32,000 bases of DNA from assembly GCA_934631005.1 (NCBI GenBank), contig CAKTXA010000013.1, positions 28,963 to 60,962 on the forward strand, read 5' to 3'. Below the pieces are notes generated by a model that was given only the letters and a program-made list of their open reading frames with translations, was not told the origin of the DNA and ran no database searches. Origin of the DNA: an uncultured Oscillospiraceae bacterium. GTDB taxonomy: Bacteria; Bacillota; Clostridia; Oscillospirales; Oscillospiraceae. Position numbers and translations under genes: made by a program. Positions 68 through 22,488 of this stretch are shown here, piece after piece (within the stretch, counting starts at the first letter, position 1; each line of letters begins with the position of its first letter).

Positions 68-102
68 AAAAAAGGCGAGGCCCTGCGGGGCCTCGCCTTT
101 TT
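68..102. terminator. Bidirectional rho-independent terminator closing the tail/baseplate operon
   Basis: 10-bp GC-rich stem AGGCGAGGCC (73-82) / GGCCTCGCCT (89-98), flanked by an A-run (68-73) and a T-run (98-102). It begins 2 nt past the stop of the 104..670 gene. Confidence 0.8.
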
Positions 103-103
103 C

Positions 104-670
104 CTACTCCTCCCGATACGTCCTCCACGCATCCCATGTCATCGCGTCCAGCTGGCCCCAGGTCAGGCCGTACTCCTCCGTCTCCTGCCACGTGCACCAG
201 CGCAGCGCGTATTCGATCCCCAGCTGCGCGGGCAGCAGATCCTCGATGATCTGCCGGATCTGCGCAAAGCCCGGCGGCTCGCCCATCACGCCGGGGAAGC
301 GGACGCGCACATGGTTCACCTCGCCCGTCTCCTCCAGTTCGCACGGCGCGCCGCACGCGGGCAGGCAGCGCCGCAGCGCTTCGAGCGTGAACCCGTCGCC
401 GGACACCTGCATCAGCGCCGCGATCGCCTGCCGCCGCGCCTGCACATCCTCCGCCGCTGAGGCGTAGCGAAACAGCGCCTCCACGCGCCGGAGGCCCTCG
501 TCCTCCGCGCTCATCACGATGCTCTCCCGGCCGTTTTTCTCCAAAACGGCGCGCAGCGCGTCCATCTGCGCGCCCAGCGCCTCCAACTGCGCCATGGAAA
601 AGCTGCCGTCGCGGAAGGTGTACACCCCCAGCGGCCGCAGCAGCGCCATCAGTCTCTGCGCGTAGCTCAT
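104..670 (-). CDS. Phage tail/baseplate protein, XkdU/YmfQ-like (DUF2313-type)
   Basis: 188-aa ORF directly downstream of the baseplate-J gene, the same slot as PBSX xkdU. ATGA start/stop overlap with the upstream gene at 667-670. Family call is from position, size and general sequence character only. Confidence 0.65.
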   Translation of the reverse strand: MSYAQRLMALLRPLGVYTFRDGSFSMAQLEALGAQMDALRAVLEKNGRESIVMSAEDEGLRRVEALFRYASAAEDVQARRQAIAALMQVSGDGFTLEALRRCLPACGAPCELEETGEVNHVRVRFPGVMGEPPGFAQIRQIIEDLLPAQLGIEYALRWCTWQETEEYGLTWGQLDAMTWDAWRTYREE

Positions 671-1725
671 ACCGCCGCCTCCGTCAGCGTCAGCGCGCCC
701 AGCACCGGCAGTCTGTCCGCCGCCCTGGCCAGGTCGCTGCCCGGCGCGCTGAGCGTGTAGTTTTCCACCAGCCCCGTGCCGTAGATCACGTCGCCCAGCG
801 CCGCGCGATACAGGCGCTTTCCCAGCAGCGCGCCGGTAAAATACGCCCGCACCGCGCTCGTCACCGCCGCCTTCGCCGTGGCAAACGCCACGCCCGCCTT
901 CGGCTTGAGCTTCGCCGTCACATTCACCACCTGCGCCGCCGGCGCGCGCACCGTCACATCCACCGCGATCTCGCGCACCTTCTGAATGTCCGCCTGCACC
1001 TCTGCCACCAGCGCCGCGTCCGGGATCCCGCCGTCCGCCGCGATCACCACGCCCACGGTCCCGATCCCGCTCTCGCGCGGGATGACCGACACCGCGCGCA
1101 CGCCCGCGTGCGAAAGCGCCCGCTGCTCATAAAACGCCGCGTTCGCGCCGTTCGGCAGGCGCACGAAGCTGTCCAGCACCCGCTGCCGCAGCGCCTCGTC
1201 CGTCTCGCCGTCGCTCCCGCCGGCGAACGCCGCCGGATTCGTCACGCCAGCCACGCCCACCGGCGCCTGCGTTAAGACTGTCACCGTCTGCACCGCGGCG
1301 TTGCCCGCGCTGCCCGCCGATTCCGCCTGCGCGGGCGCGTCGGCGTATAAGCTCCCCGCCGCGATCACCGCGTCCTCCAGCGTCACGAACCGCACCAGCC
1401 CCGCCGTGGAGCAGACCGTCCCCGCCGGGATGCTCACGTCGTCCTCCCGCGTAAGATCCATGCGGAACCGCAGCACGCCGTGCGCCTTTTCGCCCGCCTT
1501 GCGCGCAAGCCCGCGCAGCGCGGCGTGGCGGTCCAGATATTCCCCCGCCGCCGTCTGCGGAAAGCTCTGCGCCAGCGCCCAGTCGGCGTAGATATACAGC
1601 GTCTGCAGCTGCGCCGCCGCCGCATACAGCCGCACCGCCAGATCGGCGCTGTCCTCCATCGAAAAGCCCGTCTTTTCCGTAAAGACATCCAGCATCCCGC
1701 GATAAATTTCCGAAACCTCTTTCAT
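667..1725 (-). CDS. Baseplate J-like protein (XkdT / P2 gpJ / T4 gp6 family)
   Basis: 352-aa ORF with typical size and position for Baseplate_J. ATGA overlaps at both ends (667-670, 1722-1725). Confidence 0.8.
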   Translation of the reverse strand: MKEVSEIYRGMLDVFTEKTGFSMEDSADLAVRLYAAAAQLQTLYIYADWALAQSFPQTAAGEYLDRHAALRGLARKAGEKAHGVLRFRMDLTREDDVSIPAGTVCSTAGLVRFVTLEDAVIAAGSLYADAPAQAESAGSAGNAAVQTVTVLTQAPVGVAGVTNPAAFAGGSDGETDEALRQRVLDSFVRLPNGANAAFYEQRALSHAGVRAVSVIPRESGIGTVGVVIAADGGIPDAALVAEVQADIQKVREIAVDVTVRAPAAQVVNVTAKLKPKAGVAFATAKAAVTSAVRAYFTGALLGKRLYRAALGDVIYGTGLVENYTLSAPGSDLARAADRLPVLGALTLTEAAV

Positions 1726-2072
1726 ACCGTCACCTCCACCGCCGTCTGCGTGCCGTCCGCCGCGCGCAGCGTAAATTCCGCCGCCGCCTGATCGTCCGTC
1801 ACGCTGCGCACCCGCGCCGACAGCACCTCCACATCCTCATCCGCCAGCGCCTCGGCCGCCATCTGCAGCGCCGCGGCGTCGCGCGCCGCCGCCTTTTCGC
1901 GCCCCAGCTGATACAGCCTGCTCCCAAGCCCCGGCAAAAAGCACAGCGCCCCGCGCCGGCACACCAGCCGGTACAGTACCCGCTGCAGCGTCTTTTCATG
2001 CCCCCGCAGCCGCACGAACCCGCCGAACCCGTCCGGCACATAGTCGCCGCCGCGCAGCAAATTTTCCATCAT
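1722..2072 (-). CDS. Baseplate wedge protein, gp25/gpW-like (XkdS-like)
   Basis: 116-aa ORF immediately upstream of baseplate J, translationally coupled on both sides (ATGA at 1722 and 2069). Confidence 0.6.
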   Translation of the reverse strand: MMENLLRGGDYVPDGFGGFVRLRGHEKTLQRVLYRLVCRRGALCFLPGLGSRLYQLGREKAAARDAAALQMAAEALADEDVEVLSARVRSVTDDQAAAEFTLRAADGTQTAVEVTV

Positions 2073-2440
2073 TCCGCGCCCAGCTCCTTCCCGTTCACAA
2101 ACAGTCTCCCCGTCACGCGCACCTTGCCCCGCAGCTCAATGTCCCCGTTGTTGCGCAAAACGACCTGCGCCGTGTCCGAGTAGACCATCACCTCGCCCGG
2201 CGCAAGGCTCCCCTTCGCCTGCTGCAGCGCGCCGGGGATGTACGTCTGGCTCGCCTTGAGCACCAAAACGCTCTCGCCCGCGCCCGGCTGCCAGCAGTAG
2301 CCGCCGGGCGAGATGATGCGCACATCACGCTTTTCCCCGTCCGTCACCACCGCCGCGCGGCTGCCGCCCATGCTGATCGTCCCCAGCGCCGCTGTTTCCG
2401 GCTCCGTTTCCGGATGCGTGATCCTTTTGGAAAGCCACAT
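2069..2440 (-). CDS. Small baseplate/spike-region protein, XkdR-like (DUF2577-type)
   Basis: 123-aa ORF in the xkdR slot between the hub-like and gp25-like genes. Confidence 0.55.
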   Translation of the reverse strand: MWLSKRITHPETEPETAALGTISMGGSRAAVVTDGEKRDVRIISPGGYCWQPGAGESVLVLKASQTYIPGALQQAKGSLAPGEVMVYSDTAQVVLRNNGDIELRGKVRVTGRLFVNGKELGAE

Positions 2441-2446
2441 TTCCTC

Positions 2447-3379
2447 TCACCTCAGTTCCAGCGTCGTGTAAATGCCCGTGTCATCGCCGCAGTGCTCCGC
2501 CGCCGCCACGGTCAAAATGCCCGCCGCGCCCAGCCCCGGCAGCCGCAGCTCTGCCTCGTCCCCCGGCGAAATAGCCGCCGGTCCCGTCAGCTGCACCGTC
2601 ACGCCGCGCACCTCGCGCGCCGCGTCCGCCAGCCGCTGCGCCGCCGTGCGCCACGTCGCGCGCAGCTTGCCGCCCGCCGTCATGCCGCTCACGTGCGTGC
2701 ACGAAACGCCGATCGCCTTTAATTCCGCGCTCTCCGCCGTCATCTGCGCGCCCGTGCGCGTGTTCACCATCACCTGCCGCGCAGCAGCGCCATAGCGGTT
2801 TTGCACATAGCTGCACGCGCTGACCTGTTCCGCCTCGATCACCGCCCGCCGCGCGGGCGCGCTTTTTTTCAGAACGAGCGTCCCGTCGGCCGTGAACCGC
2901 GGAAAAATATCCGCGCTGTGGCGGCAGAACCCGCACAGCACCTGCCAGCACGTGTACCCCGTCTCCACCGCGAAATTCGCCACCTGCCCCATCGGCTGGG
3001 CGTCGATGCGCGTGATGCCGTATGGCCGCACATATACCCGCAGAATGTCCTCCAGCTGCGCGCTCACGAATTCCGCCGCCCGCACCTGCTCGTCCATCAG
3101 CGCCGCCGCCATCGACCGGCCCGATACCTCCGCCAGTGCCCCGCGCCGGTCGAGCCGGACCGCAAAATCGTCCACCAGCCCCGTAAAGCGCACCGCGCCG
3201 TCCGCGTCCGCCGCCGTAAAGCCGACCGCCTGCCGCAAAACCGGCAGCCACGCCGCCTCATACGCAAAGCACACCGTAAAGCTCCCGCACGGGTCGCCGT
3301 CCGTCAGCCGGATCGACCATTGCAAAAGCGGCGGCAGCGCCGTGCGCGTGCCGTCGCAAAGTCTCAGCGTCCCCGTCAT
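2447..3379 (-). CDS. Baseplate hub / late-control-D-like tail protein (XkdQ-like)
   Basis: The track ORF 2447..3487 is trimmed to the ATG at 3379, which forms an ATGA overlap with the stop of the LysM gene. 310 aa, in the xkdQ position. Confidence 0.65.
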   Translation of the reverse strand: MTGTLRLCDGTRTALPPLLQWSIRLTDGDPCGSFTVCFAYEAAWLPVLRQAVGFTAADADGAVRFTGLVDDFAVRLDRRGALAEVSGRSMAAALMDEQVRAAEFVSAQLEDILRVYVRPYGITRIDAQPMGQVANFAVETGYTCWQVLCGFCRHSADIFPRFTADGTLVLKKSAPARRAVIEAEQVSACSYVQNRYGAAARQVMVNTRTGAQMTAESAELKAIGVSCTHVSGMTAGGKLRATWRTAAQRLADAAREVRGVTVQLTGPAAISPGDEAELRLPGLGAAGILTVAAAEHCGDDTGIYTTLELR

Positions 3380-3930
3380 CCGATCCGCAGCTCCTCTCCC
3401 GTGTGAATGAGATCCGGGTCGCGGATCTGCGGGTTGTACGCCAGCATCTGCTGCATCGTCAGCCCATACGTCCGGCACAGCGCCCACAGCGTGTCGCCCG
3501 TGCGCACCGTCACCGTCCGCGCCGCCTTTGCCGCGCCATTCTCCCCGGCGGCCGTCCCGATCTGCTTCGGCGCGCTCGTCTGCTCGCCCGCGTCGCAGAA
3601 TTCAAAGCTGTACGCCACATAGTCCTCCCGCGGCTCCTGCGCCAGCTCCAGCCGGGTAAAGACCGCCCGGCTGCACCGCCACACCGGATGCCGCAGCTCG
3701 CCCGCGCCCGCCGAGCGGAACACCTCCGTCAGTGCCCGGAACTGTTCATACGCGTCGGGCCCGAAAAACTCGCCCTCCCCGCGCAGCACCGTGCAGCTCC
3801 TGCCGAGATCCTGCACGCAGTAATCGCCCATCGGGATCTTGTGCGCCGCCGTCAGCCGCTCGCACGAGAGCGTGTAGCGCCCGGGATTGTTCGGCCATGT
3901 AAACGTCTTGTACCGCATTGCAAGCAGCAT
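3376..3930 (-). CDS. LysM-domain tail protein (XkdP-like)
   Basis: 184 aa with a C-terminal LysM motif (TVRTGDTLWALCRTYGLTMQQMLAYNPQIRDPDLIHTGEELRI). GGAGG lies about 8 nt upstream of the ATG at 3930. Confidence 0.8.
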   Translation of the reverse strand: MLLAMRYKTFTWPNNPGRYTLSCERLTAAHKIPMGDYCVQDLGRSCTVLRGEGEFFGPDAYEQFRALTEVFRSAGAGELRHPVWRCSRAVFTRLELAQEPREDYVAYSFEFCDAGEQTSAPKQIGTAAGENGAAKAARTVTVRTGDTLWALCRTYGLTMQQMLAYNPQIRDPDLIHTGEELRIG

Positions 3931-3933
3931 ATC

Positions 3934-4395
3934 CTATCCTCCGTACCGTCTCGCGTCGCGCTCAAAAAAGCGCGAGATCTCCGCCATCGACCACTGCGTC
4001 TGCGCGCCCGCCAGCCCCGCCGAGCGCATCGGCTGCGCCGCCAGCGTCCGCACGCCGCCATAGCCCGTGCCGCCCGCGCCCGTCTCGCCGCTCGCGCGCA
4101 GCGTCTCAAACCGCGCCGCCCGCTGCCGGACAGCCCAGATCGCCTGCCGCGCCGCGGCCAGCTCGGCCAGCTCCTGTTCCAAGGCCTCCAGCGGCCTTCC
4201 CGCCGCGCCGTCCGATGCGGCGGGTGCCGCCGTCTCAGTCGCGGCCGTCTCCTCCGCCGCCCCGGCGGCTGCGCTCCCGGCCGTCCCCGCCGGAAGCGGC
4301 TGCGTAAGCGTGTCCGCCCGCTCCGGCGCGCGCCCGTCCTCAAGCGCCGCCGTCAGCGCCGTGTGCCGCCGCAGGATCGTTTCGATGTATCCCAT
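3934..4395 (-). CDS. Short Ala-rich helical protein in the tape-measure slot (miniature TMP or TMP remnant)
   Basis: 153-aa ORF between the chaperone and LysM genes. GAGGAG lies about 10 nt upstream of the ATG. Predicted helical segment EALEQELAELAAARQAIWAVRQRAARFETL. The 5' end overlaps the chaperone 3' end by 56 nt. Confidence 0.5.
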   Translation of the reverse strand: MGYIETILRRHTALTAALEDGRAPERADTLTQPLPAGTAGSAAAGAAEETAATETAAPAASDGAAGRPLEALEQELAELAAARQAIWAVRQRAARFETLRASGETGAGGTGYGGVRTLAAQPMRSAGLAGAQTQWSMAEISRFFERDARRYGG

Positions 4396-4996
4396 CGCGC
4401 TTCAGCTCCTCATACCGCTTTTCGTCAAACGCCGCGTTTTCCTCCGGCAGCGGCGCGCCGCAGCAGGTGCAGCGCGGCGTGCGCGCCGCCTCGCGGCACG
4501 CGGGGCAGAGGTGTTCCTGCTCCTCCTGCGCATCCAGCATCAGCTGCATCGCACAGTATAAAAGCTCCCCCTGCGTCATCGCCCGCGCCCGCTCCTCCGT
4601 CGGCAAAATGCCAAACGCCCGCAGAACGCGCCAGCGCAGCCGCTCCTGCGCATCCTCCTGCATCGCCTCCAGCAGAGTCTCCTCCGCATCCGGCTCCTCC
4701 AGCCGCGCGGGCGCGGTCATGTCCGCGTATGCCCGCATCAGCCGTTCGATCTCCTCCGCTGAGAGCGTCCGCAGCACCTCGCCGCCGCCTGTGAACGCCG
4801 CCGTCCCGTCCGGCCTTCTCGCCGCGCGCGCCACGATGCACGCGTTCGCGCACAGCCCCGCCGCCGCGCCGTTTTCCCCGGCCAGCCGCGCACCCTCGGC
4901 CTGCGCCTGCATGAGCCCCCACGCCGAGACCGGCACGAGCCGCAGCCCGCCGACCTCGGCCTCCGCCGCCAGCAGCTGCCGTACCGCGTCCGTCAC
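4340..4996 (-). CDS. Tail assembly chaperone (XkdN-like) with a C-terminal CxxC...CxCC zinc-ribbon tail
   Basis: The track ORF 4340..5125 is trimmed to the GTG at 4996, which overlaps the tube stop (GTGA) and follows GGAGAC. The position after the tube gene is the canonical chaperone slot. Confidence 0.6.
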   Translation of the reverse strand: MTDAVRQLLAAEAEVGGLRLVPVSAWGLMQAQAEGARLAGENGAAAGLCANACIVARAARRPDGTAAFTGGGEVLRTLSAEEIERLMRAYADMTAPARLEEPDAEETLLEAMQEDAQERLRWRVLRAFGILPTEERARAMTQGELLYCAMQLMLDAQEEQEHLCPACREAARTPRCTCCGAPLPEENAAFDEKRYEELKRDGIHRNDPAAAHGADGGA

Positions 4997-5382
4997 TGCG
5001 CCGTCTCCACGCGGCTGCGCGCCTCCAGCGTCACCTTTTCCATCACATTTCCGCCGACCTCGGCGCTCTCCTGGATCTCGCTCCACTGGCACCCGCCGTA
5101 AATGACGCTCCGGTCGGGCTTGCACACCACCAGCGAAAAATCCTCCAGCTCCAGAAAGCGCACCCCGTCGCGGATCGCCTCGTCCGTCGCGTAAATGCGC
5201 GTCAGCTCAATGATGTAGCGCCCCTGCCCGCGGATGGTCGCCACCGGCTGCTCCTGCCCAAAGGCATAGATCGCCTTGCTCGAGCGCTTCGCCGTCACCT
5301 TGTAGCTCTGCACCACCGCCACGCGCCGGCCGTCCACCTCCAGATAAATGTCCGCCGTCGTCGGCACCTTGATCCCCGTCAT
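4993..5382 (-). CDS. Contractile-tail tube protein (XkdM-like)
   Basis: 129-aa ORF directly downstream of the sheath gene, with size and beta-rich sequence typical of myovirus tube proteins. Confidence 0.75.
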   Translation of the reverse strand: MTGIKVPTTADIYLEVDGRRVAVVQSYKVTAKRSSKAIYAFGQEQPVATIRGQGRYIIELTRIYATDEAIRDGVRFLELEDFSLVVCKPDRSVIYGGCQWSEIQESAEVGGNVMEKVTLEARSRVETAQ

Positions 5383-5394
5383 CCGCTCGCCTCC

Positions 5395-6447
5395 TTACAC
5401 ATTCATGTGCGCCGTGAGCAGGATGCGGTTCAGCCCCTGCACCACCGTGAACTCAAATTCCACCACGCACGTCGTCCGGTCGTCCTGCGCCGCCGCCACC
5501 GTCAGCTTGTCATAGCTCTCGATGATCTCGCGCTCCACACGCTCGGCCAGCTCCAGCACCACCTGGTTGCGGATGGCCTTGCGCGTGAGGGCGTTATTCT
5601 TCGCGTGCGCAAATTTCGCGCGCAGCGCCGTGCGGATCGCCGGGATCAGCTCATCGAGAATGAGCATCGTCGTCAGCTCCCGATACGTCCTGTCCGCGCT
5701 GCCGCCGGTCTTGCTGCGCGTGGTCAGCGCCCGGATGACCTGCACCCGGCCGCCCTCGCACTCCAGCGCCGTCACGCCCGCACCCACCAGCGCGTCATAG
5801 TCCGTGTCCGAGTATACCGCCGTCACGCCCGTCAGCCCCTGCAGCGCCAGCCCGTTCAGCGGCAGCGCCGGGTCGCGCTCCGCGGCCAGCGCCCCGGCCA
5901 GCGCCGCGGCCGCCATGCACCCGTCCTGCGCCGCCGTCTCGCCGGTCACATATACCTGCGGCCCCACCAGGACCACGCGCTCACAGTTGAGCGTCTGCGC
6001 CCGCGCGATGAGCTGCTGCACCGTCGCCGCGCCCATGCCGCACAGGCCGATGCACTCGCCCTTCTGCTGCGCGGCAGAGGAAAGTGCCGTGCAGAATGCC
6101 GTCTGCGCCGCCTCCAGCGCCGTCCCCAGCACGCACAAACTCGCCCGCTTCTCCGCCAGAATGGCCGACACCGCCGCGGCATACGCCGCCGCGCTGTCCG
6201 CCGCCACCGGATAGGCCAGCACCGTCCCCGCGCCGTTCTGATACGCCAGCTTCAGCAGCTGACACAGCTGACTGCTTTCTCCAAAAGTCTCCTTCGCCCC
6301 GGCATACGACGTCAGCGTGTACACCCCCGCCTTCGCGGAGGACGCGCCGATCAGCGCGATCACGCGCTGCGCCGTCCCCGAGGACACGATGCTCGACGCG
6401 TCATAGTCCGAATACACGCCCGGCCGCTCGTGATACGTAATGCTCAT
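5395..6447 (-). CDS. Contractile-tail sheath protein (XkdK-like, minimal ~350-aa type)
   Basis: 350 aa. The N-terminus MSITYHERPGVYSDYDAS is typical of the conserved sheath N-terminal motif. ATGA overlap with the upstream gene at 6444-6447. Confidence 0.85.
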   Translation of the reverse strand: MSITYHERPGVYSDYDASSIVSSGTAQRVIALIGASSAKAGVYTLTSYAGAKETFGESSQLCQLLKLAYQNGAGTVLAYPVAADSAAAYAAAVSAILAEKRASLCVLGTALEAAQTAFCTALSSAAQQKGECIGLCGMGAATVQQLIARAQTLNCERVVLVGPQVYVTGETAAQDGCMAAAALAGALAAERDPALPLNGLALQGLTGVTAVYSDTDYDALVGAGVTALECEGGRVQVIRALTTRSKTGGSADRTYRELTTMLILDELIPAIRTALRAKFAHAKNNALTRKAIRNQVVLELAERVEREIIESYDKLTVAAAQDDRTTCVVEFEFTVVQGLNRILLTAHMNV

Positions 6448-6929
6448 TTGACCGCTCCCTTCAGAATAAAGTCCGTAAATTCCGTCTCGTCCTCGTCCGT
6501 CACGGCGTATACATACGCCTGCGCCTGCGCCCGCACCGGGCAGGTAAAGCAGTCGCTCTCCGCGTCATAGCTGCACGCGCCCACCGTGAGGCTTCCCAGC
6601 TGCACGCCCGCCGCGCCGTTTGACAGCGCCGCGACCACCTTCTCCGTCTCGGCGTAGCACGCCGCCGACCCGCCGCGCCGCGGCGCAAATACCTGCATCA
6701 GCACCTCCGCCGTCAGCTCGCAGCCATACAGCGCCGTGCGCCCGCCGTCGTCATCCTCCCGCATCCCCAGATACGAAAACTGCGCCGCCGCGCCGCTCTT
6801 TGCGCCCTGCAGGCCGACTGCCGTCACCGGCCCGGTCAGCTCCGGGGCCGTCCCCGGATAAAACTGCCGCACCACCGTCAGCCCCGCGTCCGCGAGCAGT
6901 CTACAGATCGCCCTGATCAGTTCCTGCAT
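6444..6929 (-). CDS. Tail completion / terminator-type head-tail joining protein (hypothetical)
   Basis: The track ORF 6444..7115 is trimmed to the ATG at 6929, preceded by GGGAGGAG. 161 aa, last of three small genes between the capsid and sheath genes (xkdH/I/J slots). Confidence 0.5.
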   Translation of the reverse strand: MQELIRAICRLLADAGLTVVRQFYPGTAPELTGPVTAVGLQGAKSGAAAQFSYLGMREDDDGGRTALYGCELTAEVLMQVFAPRRGGSAACYAETEKVVAALSNGAAGVQLGSLTVGACSYDAESDCFTCPVRAQAQAYVYAVTDEDETEFTDFILKGAVK

Positions 6930-7254
6930 CCGTCTCTCCTCCCGCTTCGCGCAAAAGCCCCCAGACGTAGATCGCCTCGTCCGCCAGAAACAGCCGCTCC
7001 GCCCGCTGCACGCGGTAGTCCTTCCCGCCGCAGCGCACCGCCGCGCCCTCGTCCGGCAAAACCTCCGCCGGGCCGATGTACACAGACCGCCCCCGCGGGA
7101 TCTCGCCGATGGCACGCACGCTGCGGCGCAAACTCTCCCAGCCGTTTTCCGTCACCGGCTGGATGAACGCCCGCACCGTCTGCACGCCGTCCACGCTTTC
7201 TATCTCCGCCGTGCGCCCGTAATCCGCCAAAATGCGCCCGATCAGCTCCTTCAT
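6901..7254 (-). CDS. Head-closure / head-tail adaptor protein (hypothetical)
   Basis: The track ORF 6901..7785 is trimmed to the ATG at 7254 (MKELIGRIL...), which forms an ATGA overlap with the stop of the upstream gene. 117 aa. Confidence 0.5.
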   Translation of the reverse strand: MKELIGRILADYGRTAEIESVDGVQTVRAFIQPVTENGWESLRRSVRAIGEIPRGRSVYIGPAEVLPDEGAAVRCGGKDYRVQRAERLFLADEAIYVWGLLREAGGETDAGTDQGDL

Positions 7255-7601
7255 CCGCAGGCCCCCCGGCACGAGAGCCCGCCCGCGAGAAACGGCGCCA
7301 TCAGCCGCTCCGCGGCCTGCCGCAGCGCCGCCGTGCCGGCTTTCCCCGGCGTCACCGACACCTCGCCCACGCGAAACGCCTCCACGCCGCACGCGCCGCA
7401 CGCCTCGCGGTAATTCGCCGCCGCCAGCATCGCCGCCGCGCAGGTAAAGCATTCTCCGCAGTCCTCCGCCGTCACATCCCGGCGCAGCCGGGTCAAAAGC
7501 GCCGTCTCCGCCGCCGCGCAAAGGGCCTTCAGCGCCGCGTCCTCCGCACCGGCGGCGGAAAAGCCCGCCGCCAGCGCGTAAATTTCGTCCGCCCGCGCCA
7601 C
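7251..7601 (-). CDS. Head-tail connector protein (gp6-like, hypothetical)
   Basis: 116-aa ORF starting 1 nt after the capsid gene stop, the usual slot for a connector protein. Confidence 0.5.
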   Translation of the reverse strand: MARADEIYALAAGFSAAGAEDAALKALCAAAETALLTRLRRDVTAEDCGECFTCAAAMLAAANYREACGACGVEAFRVGEVSVTPGKAGTAALRQAAERLMAPFLAGGLSCRGACG

Positions 7602-8633
7602 TCAGATCACCAGCACCTTCGCACTCTCCGGCATGATCTTGCCGAACCCGGAGATGGACGTGATCGCCGCGCGCTCCAGCTGGCGGTCGATGAGCTTGTC
7701 GTATTCCACGTTCACCTCGCCCGCCTGCACCATCTCCAGCGCATAGCGGCGGTCGAGGCCGATGAGCTTGCCCGACGGCACGCACGCCGCGCGCAGCAGC
7801 TCTGCGCCCATCGGCGCGGCCAGCTTGCCCGTGCCCTGGAAGTTCAGCCCCGTCAGCGGGTTCTGGAACTCCGTCAGCTTCAGCATCTGCACCATCGCGT
7901 CGCCCGATGCCAGCAGCGCGTTCATCGTATACGGCTCAAACTGCGACCAGAACTCCACCAGCTGCGCATACGAAAGCGTCCCCTTCGTCCCGCTCAGCGG
8001 GCTCGTGCCGATGGTCAGCACCTCGGCGGCGTTGTTATTCCCGTCGCCGTTCAGCAGCACGTCCACCGCGTCCTGCAGATGCATCTTCTGGATGTACGCG
8101 CCGATCTGGCGCAGCGTCACCGCGAACAGATCGAGCTTCTGAAAGCGGATGGCCTCATACGACGCCACCAGCATTCTCCCGCGCTTGTTGAGCTTCACCA
8201 GATTCGACTTGCTGCGGATCTCCGTCGCCGGGATGCTCGCGCCCTCGGCCACCTGCATCAGCTTCTTATCCTCCTCCGAAGCCGCGGAAAACACACTGCG
8301 GTAGTCCATCGCGTCGATGGTCGTGGTCGTTGCCACGATCTTCGGCAGCACGTCGTTCTCCTCCATCCCCTGCTTCACCGCGCGGGCGATGTACTCCGGA
8401 AACAGCACGCTCGACTCCGCCGTGCGGAAGAATTTTTCCACGGGGTCGGAATACGCCCCGCGGGCGTGGATGTCAAAGCGCTTGAGCTGACGCTGGAACG
8501 CGTCCGTCCCCTCCAGCGCCGTGCCCGCGTAGTTTTCGCTCGGGTCGAGCGACTCCAGCACCTGTGCAAAGCTCTTGCCGCTCTCGCGGTACATACCCTT
8601 TTCCAGTCTGATCGAATCAAAGCCCATGTTCAT
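7602..8633 (-). CDS. Major capsid protein (HK97-fold type)
   Basis: 343-aa ORF downstream of the protease/scaffold and decoration genes. Length and sequence character are typical of Phage_capsid-family proteins. Confidence 0.85.
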   Translation of the reverse strand: MNMGFDSIRLEKGMYRESGKSFAQVLESLDPSENYAGTALEGTDAFQRQLKRFDIHARGAYSDPVEKFFRTAESSVLFPEYIARAVKQGMEENDVLPKIVATTTTIDAMDYRSVFSAASEEDKKLMQVAEGASIPATEIRSKSNLVKLNKRGRMLVASYEAIRFQKLDLFAVTLRQIGAYIQKMHLQDAVDVLLNGDGNNNAAEVLTIGTSPLSGTKGTLSYAQLVEFWSQFEPYTMNALLASGDAMVQMLKLTEFQNPLTGLNFQGTGKLAAPMGAELLRAACVPSGKLIGLDRRYALEMVQAGEVNVEYDKLIDRQLERAAITSISGFGKIMPESAKVLVI

Positions 8634-8648
8634 TTTCTCCTTTCCGCA

Positions 8649-9017
8649 TTACAGAAACAGTCCCACGGTCTTGCCTGCCGTGTCCACGCTCACCACCAGA
8701 TGGCTTCTGCCCACCTCTGCCGGCTTCGACTCCGTCGCCGCCGCCGGCACGCGCACGCCGCTCTGCCCGTCGGCCACCAGCGCCGTAAAGCCCAGCGCCG
8801 GAGCCGTGCCCGTGTACGGCAGCTTCATAAAGCCGCCCATGCGCACGCTCGCCGTGCCGTTTCGTACCTGCGTGATCATGCCGCAGAACGCCTCGCCGCC
8901 CGCGCACGCGCCCACCGTGCCGTTCGCCGTCACCTTGCAGAGCTTGCCCTCCGCCGCGGTGTCCCCCGCGTAAAACGTCACATACCGCTCCGCGATCGCG
9001 TCAAAAGAAATTGCCAT
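8649..9017 (-). CDS. Head decoration / cement-like protein (DUF2190-type)
   Basis: The track ORF 8649..9212 is trimmed to the ATG at 9017 (MAISFDAIAERY...), preceded by GAAGGAGG. 122 aa, Gly/Ala/Thr-rich, immediately upstream of the capsid gene. Confidence 0.6.
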   Translation of the reverse strand: MAISFDAIAERYVTFYAGDTAAEGKLCKVTANGTVGACAGGEAFCGMITQVRNGTASVRMGGFMKLPYTGTAPALGFTALVADGQSGVRVPAAATESKPAEVGRSHLVVSVDTAGKTVGLFL

Positions 9018-9063
9018 TGTCCTACCTCCTTCAAAAATATGCAGCGCCGCAGCGCCATTTAGT

Positions 9064-9217
9064 AACCGATGATCTGATCGACAAGAGCTGTCGGCGAGAG
9101 GTTTTGGCCCAAATGAAAGTTTGGAAACGCAGAAATACTTTGTGTATTTCAAGTTTTCAAACTGCACAGTTGGGGCAAAAGATCCGCCGACGGCCGCAGT
9201 CGATCGGATCATCGGTT
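9064..9217 (-). repeat. Long-range inverted repeat enclosing a lower-GC insert inside the head operon
   Basis: AACCGATGATCTGATCGAC (9064-9082) pairs with GTCGATCGGATCATCGGTT (9199-9217) at 18 of 19 positions. An inner pair GCTGTCGGCG / CGCCGACGGC extends the stem. Confidence 0.6.
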
Positions 9218-9219
9218 GC

Positions 9220-10092
9220 TTACACCAGAAACGCGCTGTCCGTCTTTTTCATCGCCGTCGGGCGCTCCGCCAGCAGACACACCGGCGGATACATCGCTTC
9301 CGCCCTGCGGCCAAGGCTCTTCTCCGCCGCCTGCAGCTGCTCCGGCGTCAGGACCGACACCATCAGCTCCAAAAGCTCCTTCTCCACCGCTACGTCCGTC
9401 AGCAGCGCCAGCCGCACCACCTCGCCGCGCAGCCGCTCGCGGTACTGCCGGCCCAGCTCCGCCTGCTTGTGCAGCTGCACCCGCGCATATTCCGTCAGCT
9501 CGTCGCCCTCGCCGCGCAGGCGCTTTAACACCCCGGCCTTCCGCTGCGCGGGCACCGCCACGAACGAAAACTCATACGCATCCTGCGGCTCGCACAAAAC
9601 CGCCACGCACGTTTTCCCGCCGTATTGCCGCCCCTTCTCGTGCTCGCACGTGCCGTACTCCGCCCCGCAGATCGAGCAGAGGCTCTTTCCCATCGCGCAC
9701 CCGACCGACACCTCTTTCTTGATGCCCGCCTCGATCTCGCGGATGAGCTCCGCCGTCCTCTCCGTCCGCAGGATGTACGCCCACGCTTTGATAAAGGCCG
9801 CGCCGCTCTCGTACTCCACGCCCGTCTCAAAAATGCGCGCCAGCTGCTTCTCGCTCGACCACGTGTGGTCGGCAACGCCCGTCTTGCCCACAAACAGCTC
9901 CGCCAGCTTCCCCAGCGCGTCGGTCGCAAACCGCTCAAAATCGCGATCCACCTGATCGTCGCACAGCCGCACGGAAAAGACGTATACCTCCTCCGCGCCC
10001 AGCGGCGTCTTGGCCTGCCTGTTGATCTTCTCCAGCTGCTCCGCCGTCGGCTTTCCCGCGGTCAGAACGCCCGCCTGCTTCAAAACCTCCAT
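9220..10092 (-). CDS. Prohead protease/scaffold-type protein (XkdF-like)
   Basis: 290-aa ORF between the portal and capsid genes. The C-terminal third is coiled-coil-like (ELTEYARVQLHKQAELGRQYRERLRGEVV), as in scaffold domains. The protease function is inferred from position only. Confidence 0.55.
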   Translation of the reverse strand: MEVLKQAGVLTAGKPTAEQLEKINRQAKTPLGAEEVYVFSVRLCDDQVDRDFERFATDALGKLAELFVGKTGVADHTWSSEKQLARIFETGVEYESGAAFIKAWAYILRTERTAELIREIEAGIKKEVSVGCAMGKSLCSICGAEYGTCEHEKGRQYGGKTCVAVLCEPQDAYEFSFVAVPAQRKAGVLKRLRGEGDELTEYARVQLHKQAELGRQYRERLRGEVVRLALLTDVAVEKELLELMVSVLTPEQLQAAEKSLGRRAEAMYPPVCLLAERPTAMKKTDSAFLV

Positions 10093-10095
10093 CGT

Positions 10096-11232
10096 TTACT
10101 CCTTTCCCAGCTCCGCGCGCAGCTTTTCCGCCTGCGCGCGATACAGCGCCGCGTGCGCCTCCTCCACCGTGTCCTGCAGCGAAATGTCGTCCCACACGAT
10201 CTCCGCCTCGCCGTCAAAGCCCTCCGACCGCAGCCAGTACCGGCAGATCTTCTCCAGCACCGGCTGTACGCACCGCCGCAGCGCCCACAGCTCCGACGTC
10301 AAAAGATCCGCCTGCTGCGCGCTCATCCGCTCCGTCGACGACCAGCTCAGCCCCAGCATGAACGGCGGCAGCCCCGTCTTGGCGACGAGCTGTTCGAGAA
10401 TTTGCCGCACCGGCACCTCCGAGTCCAGCACCTGCCCGTCCGCGCCGATCACGCGAATTGCCACATCGCCCACCGCCACAAAGTCGCGCACCTCGCCGGT
10501 GCGCGTGCTACGCATCGCCTGCGACCATTCGCGTGCCATCTGCTCCGCCGCCTGCTCCGGCTGCACGCTCTCGCTTCCGGGCCTGTACACCACCGCGTAG
10601 CGCACGTTCCCTGCCCGCTCCCAGTTCGCCCCGATCGTCCGGTAAATTTTCAGCAGCACGTCCGCCAGAAATGGCATCGACGCAAACAATGACGTGCCGT
10701 AGGGATGCGCCGCGTTCGCGTTCCACGTCGAAAACAGCAGCAGCTCCTGATACGGCAGCGCCCGCTCCTGCCCGTTTTCCCACACGCACAGCTGCACCTC
10801 CAGCGGCGACGCGCCCTGCTTCACATGGACTCTGCGCACATCGCCCCAGCACACCGCCTCCAGATGCCCGCCGCGCATCACCAGCTCGCCCACCGCGCGC
10901 CCATACATCAGCAGGCTGTCCAGGTAAGCCTCCAGAAAGCTCGCGATCCCGACCTGCCCGCGCCCCACCGGCGCCGCGCGTAAAAACCGCCGCAGCCCGT
11001 CCTCCGCGCGGCGGTCTTTGCACGCCACGTCAAAGCCGCCCGTCAGCCGCACCAGCTTGCCCACCGCCGCGTCCAGGATCGGCAGCGCCGCGCGCATCGC
11101 CTCAAACATCTCCTCCTGCGCCCCGCCGAGCGCCTGCGTCTGCGCCAGCATCCCAAACGGGTTCGCCGCCTCCGTCCGCAGCTGCGCCGCCTTCGCCGCG
11201 CCCTGCACTTCCTTTTTCCGCGTAAGGATCAC
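10096..11232 (-). CDS. Portal protein
   Basis: 378-aa ORF immediately downstream of terL, with size and position typical of HK97/PBSX-type portals. Confidence 0.8.
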   Translation of the reverse strand: MILTRKKEVQGAAKAAQLRTEAANPFGMLAQTQALGGAQEEMFEAMRAALPILDAAVGKLVRLTGGFDVACKDRRAEDGLRRFLRAAPVGRGQVGIASFLEAYLDSLLMYGRAVGELVMRGGHLEAVCWGDVRRVHVKQGASPLEVQLCVWENGQERALPYQELLLFSTWNANAAHPYGTSLFASMPFLADVLLKIYRTIGANWERAGNVRYAVVYRPGSESVQPEQAAEQMAREWSQAMRSTRTGEVRDFVAVGDVAIRVIGADGQVLDSEVPVRQILEQLVAKTGLPPFMLGLSWSSTERMSAQQADLLTSELWALRRCVQPVLEKICRYWLRSEGFDGEAEIVWDDISLQDTVEEAHAALYRAQAEKLRAELGKE

Positions 11233-11244
11233 CCCTTCTTCCTT

Positions 11245-12516
11245 TTATCCGTCGCCCCGCGTCACCGCCCGCGCCGTAAAGCCGCGCGGCGTCTCCAGAA
11301 CGCCCATCACAAAATAGCGCATATCGTCCATCGCGTGGTCGTTGCGCTTTTCCACCCGGTCGCGCGTCCCGCCGCGCTCCCAAACGTACAGATCCATCTC
11401 CCGCAAACAGTCCACACACTCCGCGCAGATCACGATCCGCCCCGCCCGCAGCGCGTCCGCCGTCCGTCGGATGCCGCTGAGCACATCGTTGTCCGCCTTT
11501 TCCACCACCCAGCCCTGCCGCCGCAGCGTCTGAATAAAGCTCGCCGCCGACGGGTCGACGATCACCTTCGCGATCTCCCGCCCGCCTGCCAGCCTTGCCA
11601 GCGCCCGTGCGTACTCCTCATCCGTCATCTGCCGCCCCTCGCGCCGCGAGTCAAAGTAAAATTCCTGCACCCGGTACCACGCGCCGTCCCGCCGTCCCCA
11701 CAGCCCGAACGACGCCGGATTCACCGTCCCGTAGTCGCACGAGATCACCCATTCGGCAAAGCCCTCCTTCGGCGCGGGCGCGGCCAGCGCCGTGTCGTAA
11801 AAGTCATACACCCGGCCCTCCGCCGCCGCCCACAGTCCCTGCACGAACCGCCGGTAAAACACCCCCGCGTACATCCGCGCATACCGCCTGCGGATCTGCG
11901 GCGAGAGCGCGGGGTTGTCCTGCATCGTAAAATGCAGATGCAAACAGTTCATCTCCTCCGCCCGCACGATCCACTGCCGGTAGAACCAATGCTGCGGCCC
12001 CTCGGGATTGCAGTTGAACCACAAGCGGCTGCCCGCGTCCGAGCACCGCGCGCACGCCTGCTCCACGAAGGAACGCGGCATCAGCGCCGCCTCGTCCAGA
12101 AGCACGCCCGCCAGCGTCACGCCCTGAATGAGCGCCGCCGACCGCTCATCGTTCCCGCCGAACAGCAGAAAATCATTCTCCCGTCCCGCGAACCGCACGC
12201 GGTACCCGCCGTCCGCCGTCCTTTCAAACCGCATCCCCAGCGCCCGCAGGACCGGCACGCCGTCCGCCAAAACGTTCCGCCGCAGCGCGCCCACCGTCCG
12301 GCCGCACAGCGCAAAGCGCCTGCCGGAGAATTCGCTCATCGCCCACAGGAAAAACCCCAGCGTCATCGCGAACGTTTTTCCCGACCGGATGGCCCCGTCG
12401 CACACGATCGCCTCATACCGGCAGTCCGGCCCGCCCGCGCGCCACCAGAGCATCGCCCGCCGCTGCTTGGGCGAAAATCCGCCGCTACGCGTCATCGTCC
12501 GCATCCTCGTCCTCAT
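11245..12516 (-). CDS. Terminase large subunit (PBSX XtmB-type)
   Basis: 423 aa. Walker A-like CDGAIRSGKT, Walker B-like LLDEA, and a C-terminal nuclease region (VIVDPSAA ... HAMDDMRY). Alternative in-frame starts at 12504 and 12495 overlap the terS stop. Confidence 0.9.
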   Translation of the reverse strand: MRTRMRTMTRSGGFSPKQRRAMLWWRAGGPDCRYEAIVCDGAIRSGKTFAMTLGFFLWAMSEFSGRRFALCGRTVGALRRNVLADGVPVLRALGMRFERTADGGYRVRFAGRENDFLLFGGNDERSAALIQGVTLAGVLLDEAALMPRSFVEQACARCSDAGSRLWFNCNPEGPQHWFYRQWIVRAEEMNCLHLHFTMQDNPALSPQIRRRYARMYAGVFYRRFVQGLWAAAEGRVYDFYDTALAAPAPKEGFAEWVISCDYGTVNPASFGLWGRRDGAWYRVQEFYFDSRREGRQMTDEEYARALARLAGGREIAKVIVDPSAASFIQTLRRQGWVVEKADNDVLSGIRRTADALRAGRIVICAECVDCLREMDLYVWERGGTRDRVEKRNDHAMDDMRYFVMGVLETPRGFTARAVTRGDG

Positions 12517-12742
12517 CCTGCTCCAGTGCCCGCAAAAGCTGCCGCGCCGTCTGCGACCGTTCCTCGTCGTCGCACAGCTGTGCCAGCTGCGCCAGAATTT
12601 TCGTCCGGTCCAGCAGCTTCAGCTCCACGCCACCCTTGTCGCTGCGCTTGATCTCCGTCAGCATCGAAAGGTCGAGCTTCGCAATGTCCTCATACTCGCT
12701 CAGCGCCAGCTTCACGCAGTCGTTGACCTTTCCAAACGCCAT
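12485..12742 (-). CDS. Terminase small subunit, C-terminal half only (N-terminally truncated)
   Basis: The 85-aa ORF matches the IAFxDxxD ... GxxxKLxDKxKALELL pattern of the C-terminal half of Terminase_2-type TerS proteins, followed by an acidic tail. TerS-like codons continue upstream of the ATG to an in-frame TGA at 12809-12811. Confidence 0.65.
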   Translation of the reverse strand: MAFGKVNDCVKLALSEYEDIAKLDLSMLTEIKRSDKGGVELKLLDRTKILAQLAQLCDDEERSQTARQLLRALEQDEDEDADDDA

Positions 12743-12837
12743 CCTCCGCAGCTGCTCCCGGATCCTCTCCAGATCCGACCGCCTTACCGTCTTCCCACTC
12801 GCAGCCCCTCACCTCCCTTTCACCCAAACCCACCCCA

Positions 12838-12868
12838 ACAAAAAAAGTTGCCCTAAACCAGGCAACTC
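12838..12868 (-). terminator. Rho-independent terminator just upstream of the terS remnant
   Basis: On the minus strand: AGTTGCC, an 8-nt loop, GGCAACT, then a run of 7 T. Confidence 0.55.
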
Positions 12869-12890: not shown

Positions 12891-13205
12891 TTCGTCGTAA
12901 CGTATGGGAGGGGCTCTGCCCCTCCCGCTGGTACGCGACATCGTTCTTTAGCGGCAGTGCCGATTTGCTGAGGACCCCTTGGCTTCCCCTCGGGGAAGCT
13001 GTCGCCGCAGGCGACTGATGAGGGTCGGGGAGCACTTACGCATAGCTTAGCATGCACATCAAAACGTGACTGCTCCTCGACCCTCATCAGTCTACTCCGC
13101 TGTCGCTCCGCAGCCAGCTTCCCCCAGGGGAAGCCAAGAGGTGCATTCCACCTCGCTCCTGCGTCAAAGGTACGTCCGTGCGCGCTTACCTCTCCCCGCT
13201 TCCCT
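12891..13205. repeat. Hairpin-repeat cluster R1 (GTAG-headed REP-like family, right end degenerate)
   Basis: Starts TTCGTCGTAACGTATGGGAGGGGCTCTGCCCCTCCC. Contains the family modules CTTCCCCTCGGGGAAG, GTCGCCGCAGGCGAC and the long central hairpin CTGATGAGGGTCGGGGAGCA...TGCTCCTCGACCCTCATCAG. Confidence 0.85.
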
Positions 13206-13213
13206 ATAAAACA

Positions 13214-13251
13214 ACAAAAAATCGCCCGGCGTGGTTCCCCCGCCGGGCGAT
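13214..13251 (-). terminator. ileS rho-independent terminator
   Basis: Stem ATCGCCCGGCG (13221-13231) / CGCCGGGCGAT (13241-13251), followed on the minus strand by TTTTTTG. Confidence 0.8.
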
Positions 13252-13263
13252 CTTCCTTTCATA

Positions 13264-16071: not shown

Positions 16072-16132
16072 AACTTCAAAACTCCTTTGTGAGTATATTT
16101 TCATCGTCCCAAAGCCCGCCCTGTCGCCACGT

Positions 16133-16216
16133 TTCGTCGTAACGTAGGGGAGGGGCTTGCCCCTCCCGCGGCTTCCCCTTGAGGGGAAGCTGTCGGCGAA
16201 GCCGACTGATGAGGAG
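16133..16216. repeat. Hairpin-repeat fragment R2 (left arm only) inside the ileS 5' UTR
   Basis: TTCGTCGTAACGTAGGGGAGGGGCTTGCCCCTCCC, then CTTCCCCTTGAGGGGAAG, GTCGGCGAAGCCGAC and CTGATGAGG, after which similarity to the family ends. Confidence 0.85.
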
Positions 16217-16255: not shown

Positions 16256-16497
16256 ACAAAAACCGCCCCGAACCAACGTTCAGGGCGGCCATGACCGCGG
16301 TACCACCTGAATTCCCGTAAAAAACGGGCACTCCGTCCTCCTGTAACGGGAAGGCCCCGTCGCGCCTAGTTGGCAAAGCCGTTCAGCGCGCTGCTCCAAG
16401 GGGATATTCCGGCCGCCCCACGACCGCCTCACACCACCCCGGCGGCTCTCTGCACGCGGAAAAAGACCGTACTCGTCCTTGTCATCGCATAATTTCG
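16256..16497 (-). promoter_or_regulatory. T-box leader riboswitch controlling ileS
   Basis: On the minus strand: GCGATGA...AGTA (stem I base), AGAGAG...GGTGGTG, the T-box sequence AATTCAGGTGGTACCGCGG (about 16296-16314), then terminator CCGCCCTGAA/TTCGGGGCGG + TTTTTG (16256-16288). An AUC triplet lies in the candidate specifier region (about 16403-16405), but that assignment is uncertain. Confidence 0.85.
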
Positions 16498-16570: not shown

Positions 16571-17030
16571 TCCCCCTGTAGGGGCCGATGACCATATCGG
16601 CCCGCACACCGCACCGCCGGTCACGCCGTAGGGGCGGGGTCCTACCCCGCCCGCACCCGACCGACCACCGCCGCACCCTCGATCCTTCGTCGTAACGTAG
16701 GGGAGGGGCTTGCCCCTCCCGCCGGTAGGCAGCTGTGGCTTTTGCACGCACCGGCGGGTGGTACGCAGCCCATACCTTCCCCTGGGGGAAGGTGCCCCCG
16801 AAGGGGGCGGATGAGGGCCGGGGAGCACTGAAACATAGCTTTGCATGCTCAGCAAAACGCAACTGCTCCCCGATCCTCATCAGTCGCCTGCGGCGACAGC
16901 TTCCCCCAGGGGAAGCTATGGGGTGCCTACGTTTCGCCGCTGCGTCGGGGATTCGTCAGCGCGTGCTAACTTATTCACTATTCACTCTTCACTATTCCTT
17001 CAAATCGCCCCTCCCCTACATTACGACGAA
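16571..17030. repeat. Hairpin-repeat cluster R3 (three GTAG-headed hairpin types plus a composite element)
   Basis: GTAGGGGCCGATGACCATATCGGCCC (16578-), GTAGGGGCGGGGTCCTACCCCGCCC (16628-), GTAGGGGAGGGGCTTGCCCCTCCC (16697-). Also the central hairpin GATGAGGGCCGGGGAGCA...TGCTCCCCGATCCTCATC and the right end GCCCCTCCCCTACATTACGACGAA (to 17030). Confidence 0.9.
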
Positions 17031-22418: not shown

Positions 22419-22445
22419 TTCCTCCTAATTTTTGTAAATTTATGC

Positions 22446-22474: not shown

Positions 22475-22488
22475 TTGACTGTAAATAA

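Follow-up and report, generated by a model that had tools for sequence, protein, structure and literature searches.

Introduction

Gene transfer agents (GTAs) and PBSX-type particles are the closest described counterparts of the locus analysed here, a block of phage-like head and contractile-tail genes at positions 104-12742 of a 32,000-nucleotide stretch of DNA (the window) from an uncultured Oscillospiraceae bacterium (assembly GCA_934631005.1, contig CAKTXA010000013.1, positions 28,963 to 60,962). In long-read viromics published in 2026, Oscillospiraceae and Faecalibacterium alike were reported to release short, random chromosome fragments in capsids, with the genes known only for Faecalibacterium (PMC12946183; virus-like-particle reads, PRJNA1404639). 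For the Oscillospiraceae species Onthomonas sp900545815 that study described GTA-type packaging of random host fragments of ~5.9 kb and found no responsible cluster (PMC12946183), and a 2026 preprint gives the same picture for Pelethomonas (GTA-type packaging, no cluster found); the published ~5.9-kb fragments are not tied to the present cluster. Our literature search found no paper describing this cluster. An earlier note, made from the sequence of the window, had proposed a GTA- or PBSX-type identity for the block and had called such particles essentially undescribed in high-GC Clostridia, a statement overtaken by the publication in 2026 of both GTA-like packaging in Oscillospiraceae and a Faecalibacterium GTA (PMC12946183).

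The GTA of Faecalibacterium prausnitzii (FpGTA) was described in 2026 and, judged by family assignments and descriptions, resembles the window cluster in being a chromosomal structural operon of an Oscillospirales gut anaerobe that starts with a small terminase subunit (TerS) lacking a DNA-binding domain, followed by the large subunit (TerL), portal, scaffold and major capsid protein (MCP) (PMC12946183). Further FpGTA functions are encoded at a second locus, the agent is near-ubiquitous in the genus, and no homolog was found outside Faecalibacterium in that study (PMC12946183). However, FpGTA is podovirus-like, with ten open reading frames (ORFs) in 10.5 kb, whereas the window cluster has genes for sheath and tube together with a full baseplate. 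Moreover, the FpGTA capsid protein is annotated as a member of the N4-gp56 family, whereas the one encoded here matches PF25209 and has no NCBIfam match.

PBSX is ~28 kb long and carries xre, xpf, the XkdO tape measure (~1,300 aa), fibre genes and holin/endolysin genes beside its structural genes. Compared on the same terms as FpGTA, it shares with the window cluster the form of a Firmicute chromosomal head and contractile-tail operon, the gene order (xtmA-xkdU), a TIGR01547 TerL (6e-48, 164 bits against a cut-off of 105), a LysM hub protein, and Baseplate_J followed by an XkdU/Mu gp48-like protein. In contrast to PBSX, the cluster lacks a linked long tape measure, fibres, a lysis cassette and xre/xpf, its tape-measure slot holds 153 codons, and its TerS has no DNA-binding domain. 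The colinearity with PBSX put forward in the earlier note thus extends to gene order and TerL family and stops short of the Xkd-specific tail families: no XkdM/N/R/S-specific Pfam family was matched, three tail genes (g11, g16 and g17, as numbered below) had no Pfam match at all at E<=0.01, a fourth (g12) gave weak zinc-ribbon and HEAT matches only, and the Xkd-type domains that were found are of the XkdP, XkdQ, XkdT and XkdU types only, all shared with Mu and P2. The DNA packaged by PBSX consists of random 13-kb host fragments, which are not transferred (PMC7667829; PMC12946183).

RcGTA of Alphaproteobacteria resembles the cluster in being a head-tail cluster (~14-15 kb) that is under purifying selection and has neither replication nor integration genes, in having a miniaturised tape measure (its gene g11), and in the location of fibre and lysis genes at other loci, as predicted here. 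The RcGTA TerS lacks DNA specificity, a property also predicted for the TerS encoded here. It differs in its non-contractile, siphovirus-type tail, and the window cluster matches different protein families; RcGTA regulation by CtrA/GafA is known and transfer has been demonstrated experimentally. R-type tailocins (pyocins, diffocins) and extracellular contractile injection systems are likewise chromosomal, domesticated sheath-tube-baseplate modules. Head and packaging genes are missing from these systems, and their tape measures run to several hundred residues, in contrast to the full head and terminase of the cluster.

A structural cluster bounded by cellular genes

ORF calling and profile searches placed 19 tightly packed, intact ORFs at 104-12742, all on the minus strand and numbered here g01 to g19 from the TerS-like gene onwards; the earlier note was right that the frames are uninterrupted and one too high in counting 20. 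Profile annotation, a check suggested in that note, returned structural genes only. We consider it probable that the block is a host-resident, vertically inherited, phage-derived cluster for particles of the GTA/PBSX class (a 'viriform') and not a prophage. The computational checks suggested in the earlier note (profile annotation, extension of the left edge, synteny and selection) all fell on the side of its GTA/PBSX-type reading.

The left edge of the window lies 103 nt from the cluster and was resolved with metagenomic contigs (L001-L003) that match these terminal 103 nt and encode cluster proteins with 91-100% identity (98% for baseplate J). Beyond the edge these contigs carry REP-like palindromes, a 255-aa zinc-ribbon/coiled-coil protein, an SNF transporter, an SLH protein, an IS200 transposase, an OTCase and a permease. 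To the right of the cluster lie ileS with its T-box, a CarD-like gene, an aldehyde dehydrogenase gene and further cellular genes. Fibre, holin, endolysin, integrase, repressor and replication genes were absent from both sides (window on the right, L001-L003 on the left). The same holds more widely: cellular genes lay on both sides in more than 15 contexts, and no integrase, excisionase, repressor, primase/replication or lysis gene and no attachment (att) repeat was found flanking the cluster in any of them. Flanks vary by lineage and are always cellular, for example FBP aldolase/PFK, M23 peptidase/CBS/FeoAB, hrcA-grpE-dnaK-dnaJ/SDF, RlmI/PBP5 and SHMT.

Conservation, selection and composition

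In a set with one representative genome per species, relatives of the capsid gene were detected at no fewer than 569 sites; record names of the 80 retrieved are of Oscillospiraceae, Faecousia or broader Clostridia/Clostridiales type. The full, myo-tailed cluster (group A) was present in 19 of these 80 loci and in 39 of 80 IMG/VR loci, colinear in all. In 39 complete copies the cluster measures 11.6-12.9 kb from terL to g19, with GC contents from 0.54 to 0.705. The most conserved genes are those for the MCP (g06, 66-100% identical across all relatives), TerL and portal.

Reading frames were full-length and open in 20 compared loci, with three exceptions. The ratio of nonsynonymous to synonymous substitution rates (dN/dS, Nei-Gojobori) lay below 1 for each of the 19 genes, ranging from 0.01 to 0.65 at dS of ~0.3-0.5; it was 0.01-0.05 for the tube gene g11, 0.02-0.2 for g06 (low end for tube and capsid, 0.01-0.08), and 0.5-0.65 for g07, g08 and g13. 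Seven junctions retain 4-nt start/stop overlaps (ATGA at 667, 1722, 2069, 3376, 6444 and 7251; GTGA at 4993), exactly as the earlier note had listed them, and its view that the operon is maintained is upheld by the intact frames and dN/dS values. In the suggested synteny check the cluster itself proved colinear, and its adjacency to ileS is not conserved.

Where the chromosomal position has been kept, as between L096 and L025/L026, the flanking RlmI, PBP5 and a 426-aa protein are 79-87% identical, and TerL, portal and sheath 84-89%. Between the window lineage and L013/L014, the downstream zinc-ribbon protein is 83-84% identical, the SNF transporter 93% and the cluster ~85%. These values suggest that divergence of the cluster tracks that of conserved flanking host genes. 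Taken together, the cross-species conservation, the purifying selection and the matching identities of flank and cluster at kept positions are those of a host-maintained block, and Oscillospiraceae appear to have kept this head and contractile-tail block intact for a very long time without viral replication genes.

The composition of the cluster is host-like at third codon positions. Its GC content there (GC3) equals that of host genes, GC at second positions (GC2) and usually at first positions (GC1) is higher, and overall the cluster is 2-8 GC points richer than its flanks in 21 of 21 loci checked. Raised GC1/GC2 with host-equal GC3 is the pattern of RcGTA-like GTAs (PMC7360931).

A head and packaging module shared by two architectures

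Most other capsid relatives (most of L031-L092) belong to a second architecture of ~7 kb (group B), which also lies between housekeeping genes, for example between RNase J and QueH (L098:9570-16629). Group B shares the leader, TerS/TerL, portal, g04, g05, MCP and neck genes with the window cluster, its TerS sometimes being full-length with a helix-turn-helix (HTH). Its last genes encode a tube-like protein and a product similar to the g14 N-terminus; sheath and baseplate are missing, and the contractile tail is limited to one branch. Because group B keeps the head and packaging genes without sheath or baseplate, we take the head and packaging module to be the conserved core.

The TerS-like g01 aligned with the C-terminal 85 residues of the 143-152-aa Terminase_2-type TerS proteins of related clusters. 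The HTH-like N-terminal 60-74 residues are absent from all group A clusters and from many others. The earlier note had read the missing N-terminus as an impairment of this particular gene; the HTH is indeed absent, as a family-wide state and not through local truncation, and the 85-aa form is ancestral and not a product of decay.

A short tape-measure slot

The tape-measure slot shows the same pattern. The earlier note had correctly remarked on its mere 153 codons and had listed this among the GTA/defective-phage traits of the block; the slot is short in every locus and has not been shortened locally. Between the tube gene and g14 lie 0.5-1.6 kb in every locus that encodes a sheath, and 19 bp in two loci without one. 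Homologs of g13 were short in an indexed search (70 matches, 115-169 aa), and an exhaustive profile search of 1.84 billion representatives returned 97 matches, with full-length members of 131-171 aa and the longest of 274 aa. In this family the N-terminal helix is conserved, the middle is variable and the C-terminus, SMxEISRFFERDARRYG, is invariant. Since its ends are conserved, its sequence is free but its length constrained, and its position is between tube/chaperone and hub, g13 is best described as ruler-like. The short slot is ancestral and conserved family-wide, not a sign of decay. A tape measure spans ~1.5 Å per residue, and 150 aa would therefore correspond to a tail of a few tens of nm. 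For comparison, the RcGTA tape measure has ~216 aa and its tail is 49 nm long (PMC7296036).

The g13 ORF, in the +1 frame relative to g12, shares 56 nt with it and is equipped with a separate ATG and GAGGAG. Programmed frameshifting of the G/GT type between the two genes was considered and is not supported, as g13 lies in the +1 frame with initiation signals of its own (ATG and Shine-Dalgarno sequence) and the shared stretch is just 17 nt in relatives. Pfam matches of g12 were weak and below cut-off (DZR_2, E 2.8e-4, 21.1 bits against 27; HEAT_2), and its single-sequence AlphaFold2 model (pLDDT 45) was unusable for fold search. For g13 AlphaFold2 (17-sequence alignment, pLDDT 60) gave three helices with disordered linkers and no globular fold, too poor for a fold search. 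Sequence searches of the PDB with MCP, g04, g12 and g13 returned nothing useful.

A covarying leader hairpin

Upstream of g01 lies a terminator-like hairpin (GTTGCC-TGGTTTAG-GGCAAC followed by a T-run; 12844..12866, minus strand), ~100 nt before the g01 ATG. The earlier note had listed a terminator at 12838-12868 between the block and ileS; the hairpin is indeed terminator-like, and it belongs to the leader of the cluster and is not the terminator of ileS, which has its own at ~13215-13252. As a motif, GTTGY-N10-RCAAC(T) plus T-run, it has a fixed length; 46 distinct sequences contain it, a single time per locus and immediately before the TerS-like gene. It is present in both cluster architectures whatever the upstream gene (window; L013-L097), and in the window there was one match against 0.01 expected. 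The search pattern fixed the outer pairs and left the inner three pairs free, and it is these inner pairs that covary: the score was 0.343 against 0.178±0.017 in shuffled alignments, none of 500 shuffles scored as high, and slid controls were far lower. A conserved GAAAGGAGG block follows the hairpin at 25-35 nt. In the window, upstream-region alignments delimit the conserved leader block GGGTTTGGGTGAAAGGGAGGTGAGGGGCTGCG at 12799..12832 (minus strand), containing the Shine-Dalgarno-like GAAAGGGAGG.

Because the hairpin and the following block precede the TerS-like gene in both architectures, they suggest a dedicated antitermination or regulator-binding switch, and the hairpin is an ancestral element of the cluster and not a trace of decay. 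Folding of the whole leader revealed no structure besides the hairpins (z = -1.3). A scan of viral contigs with the hairpin pattern for a second co-regulated locus yielded mostly unrelated chance matches. The one extra match among the compared loci, in L039, proved to be the ordinary promoter of an EF-G-like gene.

Within the cluster, terminator-like sites were weak and no commoner than in shuffled sequence, which fits a single operon. At its end, an intrinsic terminator at 68..102 (minus strand; GGCGAGGCCC-CGCA-GGGCCTCGCC then T6, with a 10-bp GC-rich stem) directly follows g19 and closes the operon. It was correctly recognised in the earlier note and is also found in L001-L003.

Occurrence in phage and virus records

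A capsid search of 50,697 phage records found no verified phage with this head; the matches were five unannotated 'UNVERIFIED Bacteriophage sp.' faecal contigs and phages at <=29% identity. Two human-faecal contigs among these, MT835508.1 (L101) and MT835769.1 (L102), were examined and are bacterial chromosomal fragments with the cluster or its head-only form, surrounded by genes for nucleoside phosphorylase, racemase, ThyA, oleate hydratase, an ABC transporter and NrdD. If these records stem from virus-like-particle preparations, they hint at encapsidation of the carriers' chromosomal DNA.

Among the best 80 IMG/VR contigs with the capsid gene, 78 are <=14.3 kb and the other two 19.4 and 29.5 kb. 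The uncultivated virus genome records (UViGs) that derive from isolate genomes (L142, L145, L148, L162-L164, L174 and L178) are provirus predictions of 13-14.3 kb that consist of the cluster alone, with terL at position ~16-1,200 and the end of g19 at ~12.4-13.3 kb. It follows that cultured carrier strains exist, among them the isolate genomes behind UViGs 640963014, 2511231134, 2551306563, 2623620509, 2788500395/6, 2886685171 and 2910108013. Provirus predictors and the GenBank 'Bacteriophage sp.' records count the cluster as a virus, and prophage and virome counts of the family are inflated as a result.

Alternative explanations

The likeness to PBSX also fits a killer particle, in which the contractile tail acts as a bacteriocin or tailocin and packaged host DNA is an undelivered by-product: the TerL is of the PBSX family, the gene order from small terminase to XkdU-like gene matches that of PBSX, the contractile tail is complete with a LysM hub protein, and PBSX packages 13-kb host fragments without transferring them (PMC7667829; PMC12946183). 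We consider this unlikely, since no fibre or receptor-binding gene was found in cis in any lineage examined and the predicted very short tail would be an odd design for a killing device. Moreover, group B keeps the head without sheath and baseplate, suggesting that the head and its DNA are the core, and MCP, TerL and portal are the most conserved genes. The presence of these three also separates the cluster from R-type tailocins, which are tail-only. Alternatively, the block could be the late-gene module of a functional mobile element, either a temperate myovirus with modules elsewhere or a satellite dependent on a helper for induction, fibres and lysis. Although the chromosomal position varies between lineages, the upstream flank varies among ~85% identical relatives, and prophage predictors call the region a provirus, such an element is improbable. 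More than 15 contexts contained no integrase, excisionase, repressor, primase/replication gene or att repeat, the flanking repeats are dispersed REP-like elements, the cluster has diverged as much as the adjacent host genes, GC3 is host-identical across GC contents of 0.54-0.70, and no phage-sized contig with the cluster was present among the best 80 IMG/VR contigs. In the contexts examined there was no contiguous integrase, att site, repressor, replication or lysis gene of a temperate myovirus, and, as regards a cf-PICI-type satellite, the flanks held no integrase/replication module and the cluster has a complete tail module of its own.

Intact frames for all 19 genes in nearly all of 20 divergent loci, dN/dS below 1 in every gene, retained translational-coupling overlaps, a conserved and covarying leader element, and presence in hundreds of species (the capsid gene at at least 569 sites) make it very improbable that the cluster is an inert prophage remnant that survived by chance and has no product, despite the absence of regulator, lysis and fibre genes nearby, a g01 start that is seemingly mutated (GTG in L016, GTA here) and occasional broken genes in metagenome-assembled genomes (MAGs), namely g15 in L023 and g07 in L008. 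The reading as a host-resident GTA/PBSX-class cluster has points against it as well. The evidence is comparative sequence analysis throughout, with comparison genomes that are mostly MAGs, and no regulator, lysis or fibre gene was located for the cluster. The dN/dS values of 0.4-0.65 in several small genes indicate fairly relaxed constraint, and the GC1/GC2 signal may not be specific, as Ala/Gly richness is possibly general in phage structural proteins. The ruler function of g13 is deduced from position, architecture and length conservation only, with a low-confidence AlphaFold2 model. Finally, relatives at ~85% protein identity already differ in the upstream flank, ileS included, whereas the downstream flank is conserved, and this variation among close relatives leaves room for some mobility or local rearrangement of the cluster.

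Proposed mechanism and significance

For the assembly pathway, packaging mode, tail length, regulation and biological role of the cluster we propose the following model. The 19 genes would be transcribed as a single operon, with transcription passing, or beginning just past, the terminator-like leader hairpin under the control of a dedicated, unlinked regulator or antiterminator. Portal, g04, g05 and MCP would form small heads of the HK97 type, which the PBSX-family TerL, together with a TerS lacking its DNA-binding domain, would fill by the headful with no preference for cluster DNA. The connectors g07-g09 would link the head to a contractile tail, with g10 as its sheath and g11 as its tube, assembled on a Mu/P2-type baseplate (g14-g19) around the constant ~150-aa ruler g13 with g12 as chaperone, and this tail is predicted to be exceptionally short (a few tens of nm). 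Fibres or receptor-binding proteins, lysis and regulation would be encoded at other chromosomal loci, as in RcGTA and FpGTA, and particles would be released by lysis.

The cluster is a strong candidate for the machinery that underlies the random packaging of bacterial DNA lately observed in Oscillospiraceae. A bolder proposal, which we offer as tentative and on balance doubtful, is that it is the missing locus of GTA-type packaging in gut Oscillospiraceae: an ancient, family-wide domestication and the first contractile-tailed GTA, its tail miniaturised to a few tens of nm by the ~150-aa ruler, with two architectures (a full myo-type tail, and a ~7-kb head with a neck stub) that share the head module and a covarying leader terminator hairpin, used by a dedicated antiterminator or regulator as an ON switch. 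If so, the range of GTAs would be widened to contractile tails and to a ~150-aa tape-measure-like protein, which bears on the lower limit of tail-length setting, and the conserved leader hairpin would provide a handle on GTA regulation. Oscillospiraceae are abundant gut bacteria, and a candidate cluster present in cultured isolates would open this route of gene flow to experiment. The cluster is relevant to both the GTA and the gut-mobilome fields.

Gene content

All genes are given in window coordinates and lie on the minus strand. The packaging and head genes comprise g01 (12485..12742; weak phrog_2606 TerS match over the C-terminal part, without N-terminal HTH), the large terminase g02 (11245..12516; PF03237/Terminase_6N, 4e-11; phrog_2, 9e-48; TIGR01547), the portal g03 (10096..11232; phrog_30703, 3e-140), g04 (9220..10092), g05 (8649..9017) and the HK97-type MCP g06 (7602..8633; PF25209, 5e-14; phrog_3922, 2e-103). 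A putative head-assembly role is assigned to g04 from its scaffold/protease position; it matches phrog_16951 (function unknown, 8e-95) and nothing in Pfam, NCBIfam or PDB, and the designation as a protease in the earlier note found no family support. Likewise, g05 was not supported as DUF2190-like and is a 122-aa virion or head protein that matches phrog_4588 (virion structural protein, 2.5e-25); its start at 9017 is preceded by the Shine-Dalgarno sequence GAAGGAGG. The one sizeable gap within the operon separates g04 from g05 (9018-9219, ~200 nt); it contains weak hairpins, is present in L001 and measures 18 nt in L005.

In frame upstream of the g01 ATG, 12 codons (12743-12787, minus strand, SDLERIREQLRR) are conserved. 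The codon used as a GTG start for g01 in L016 reads GTA in the window, and GGAGG abuts the ATG at 12742. For these two reasons it is uncertain where g01 truly starts, or how efficiently its TerS is translated in this genome.

Three genes form the putative neck. A head-tail connector is suggested for g07 (7251..7601) by a weak phrog_5938 match and a position kept in relatives, and, by position, g08 (6901..7254; an ORF in all relatives, with no family match) is a neck or connector protein and g09 (6444..6929; phrog_25177, 1.5e-20) a neck or tail-completion protein. The 350-aa contractile sheath g10 (5395..6447) has PF04984 (Phage_sheath_1) and PF17482 (1C) domains and matches phrog_279 (2.5e-38); directly after it comes the 129-aa tail tube g11 (4993..5382; phrog_27038, 1.5e-51). 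At the tail-chaperone position g12 (4340..4996) encodes 218 aa with a C-terminal CxxC...CxxC zinc ribbon that is conserved in alignment, followed by the ruler-like g13, a putative mini tape measure (3934..4395, 153 aa).

The hub and baseplate genes begin with g14 (3376..3930), a Mu gp43/XkdP-like hub protein with PF07157 (DNA_circ_N, 1.7e-7) and a C-terminal LysM domain (PF01476, 1.7e-11), and g15 (2447..3379), a Mu gp44/XkdQ-like baseplate hub (PF22255, 2.8e-7; phrog_177, 3e-24). The small g16 (2069..2440; phrog_25991, function unknown, 5e-28) is placed at the spike/XkdR position by position only, and g17 (1722..2072; weak phrog_975) at the gp25/XkdS position. The baseplate J wedge g18 (667..1725; PF04865, 2.4e-53; phrog_6, 4e-71) is followed by the last gene of the operon, the Mu gp48/XkdU-like g19 (104..670; phrog_521, 4e-15; PF10076 weak and below cut-off).

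Surroundings of the cluster

The ileS gene occupies 13264-16104 and is preceded by a T-box leader at 16278-16494 (minus strand, 118 bits) with a T-box terminator at ~16261-16290. The repeat cluster reported before ileS in the earlier note is present and consists of a REP-like palindrome (core CCCTCATCAGTCGCCTGC, arms ~60 nt) with at least 6 intergenic copies in the window (12975-13135, 16198-16215, 16874-16891, 20184-20201 and 27732-27749). In this lineage it occurs on both sides of the cluster, and the copies in L003 (8200-8360) lie downstream of it. The inverted repeats between ileS and g01 were considered as an att site and this was rejected, as they belong to a dispersed family.

In many lineages an M23 peptidase gene, often accompanied by a small CBS-domain gene, adjoins the cluster on either side (L009:11760-12990, L025:17499-18218, L093:5294-6478, L039:12976-13635 and others); it is absent from the window. 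In some head-only clusters it is the last gene on the same strand, and it may serve the system as cell-wall hydrolase.

At 22068-23187 of the window, an Xre-type HTH gene (minus strand) diverges from three small genes (plus strand), the last of which encodes an 87-aa Sigma70_r4/YlxM-like protein and lies shortly before the gene for a 1277-aa SLH protein. A stand-alone 121-aa Spo0A_C-domain protein is encoded nearby, at 20518-20883. The Xre/Sigma70_r4 module (22.0-23.2 kb) was considered as a regulator like PBSX xre/xpf and set aside, as none of these genes is found beside the cluster in any other locus.

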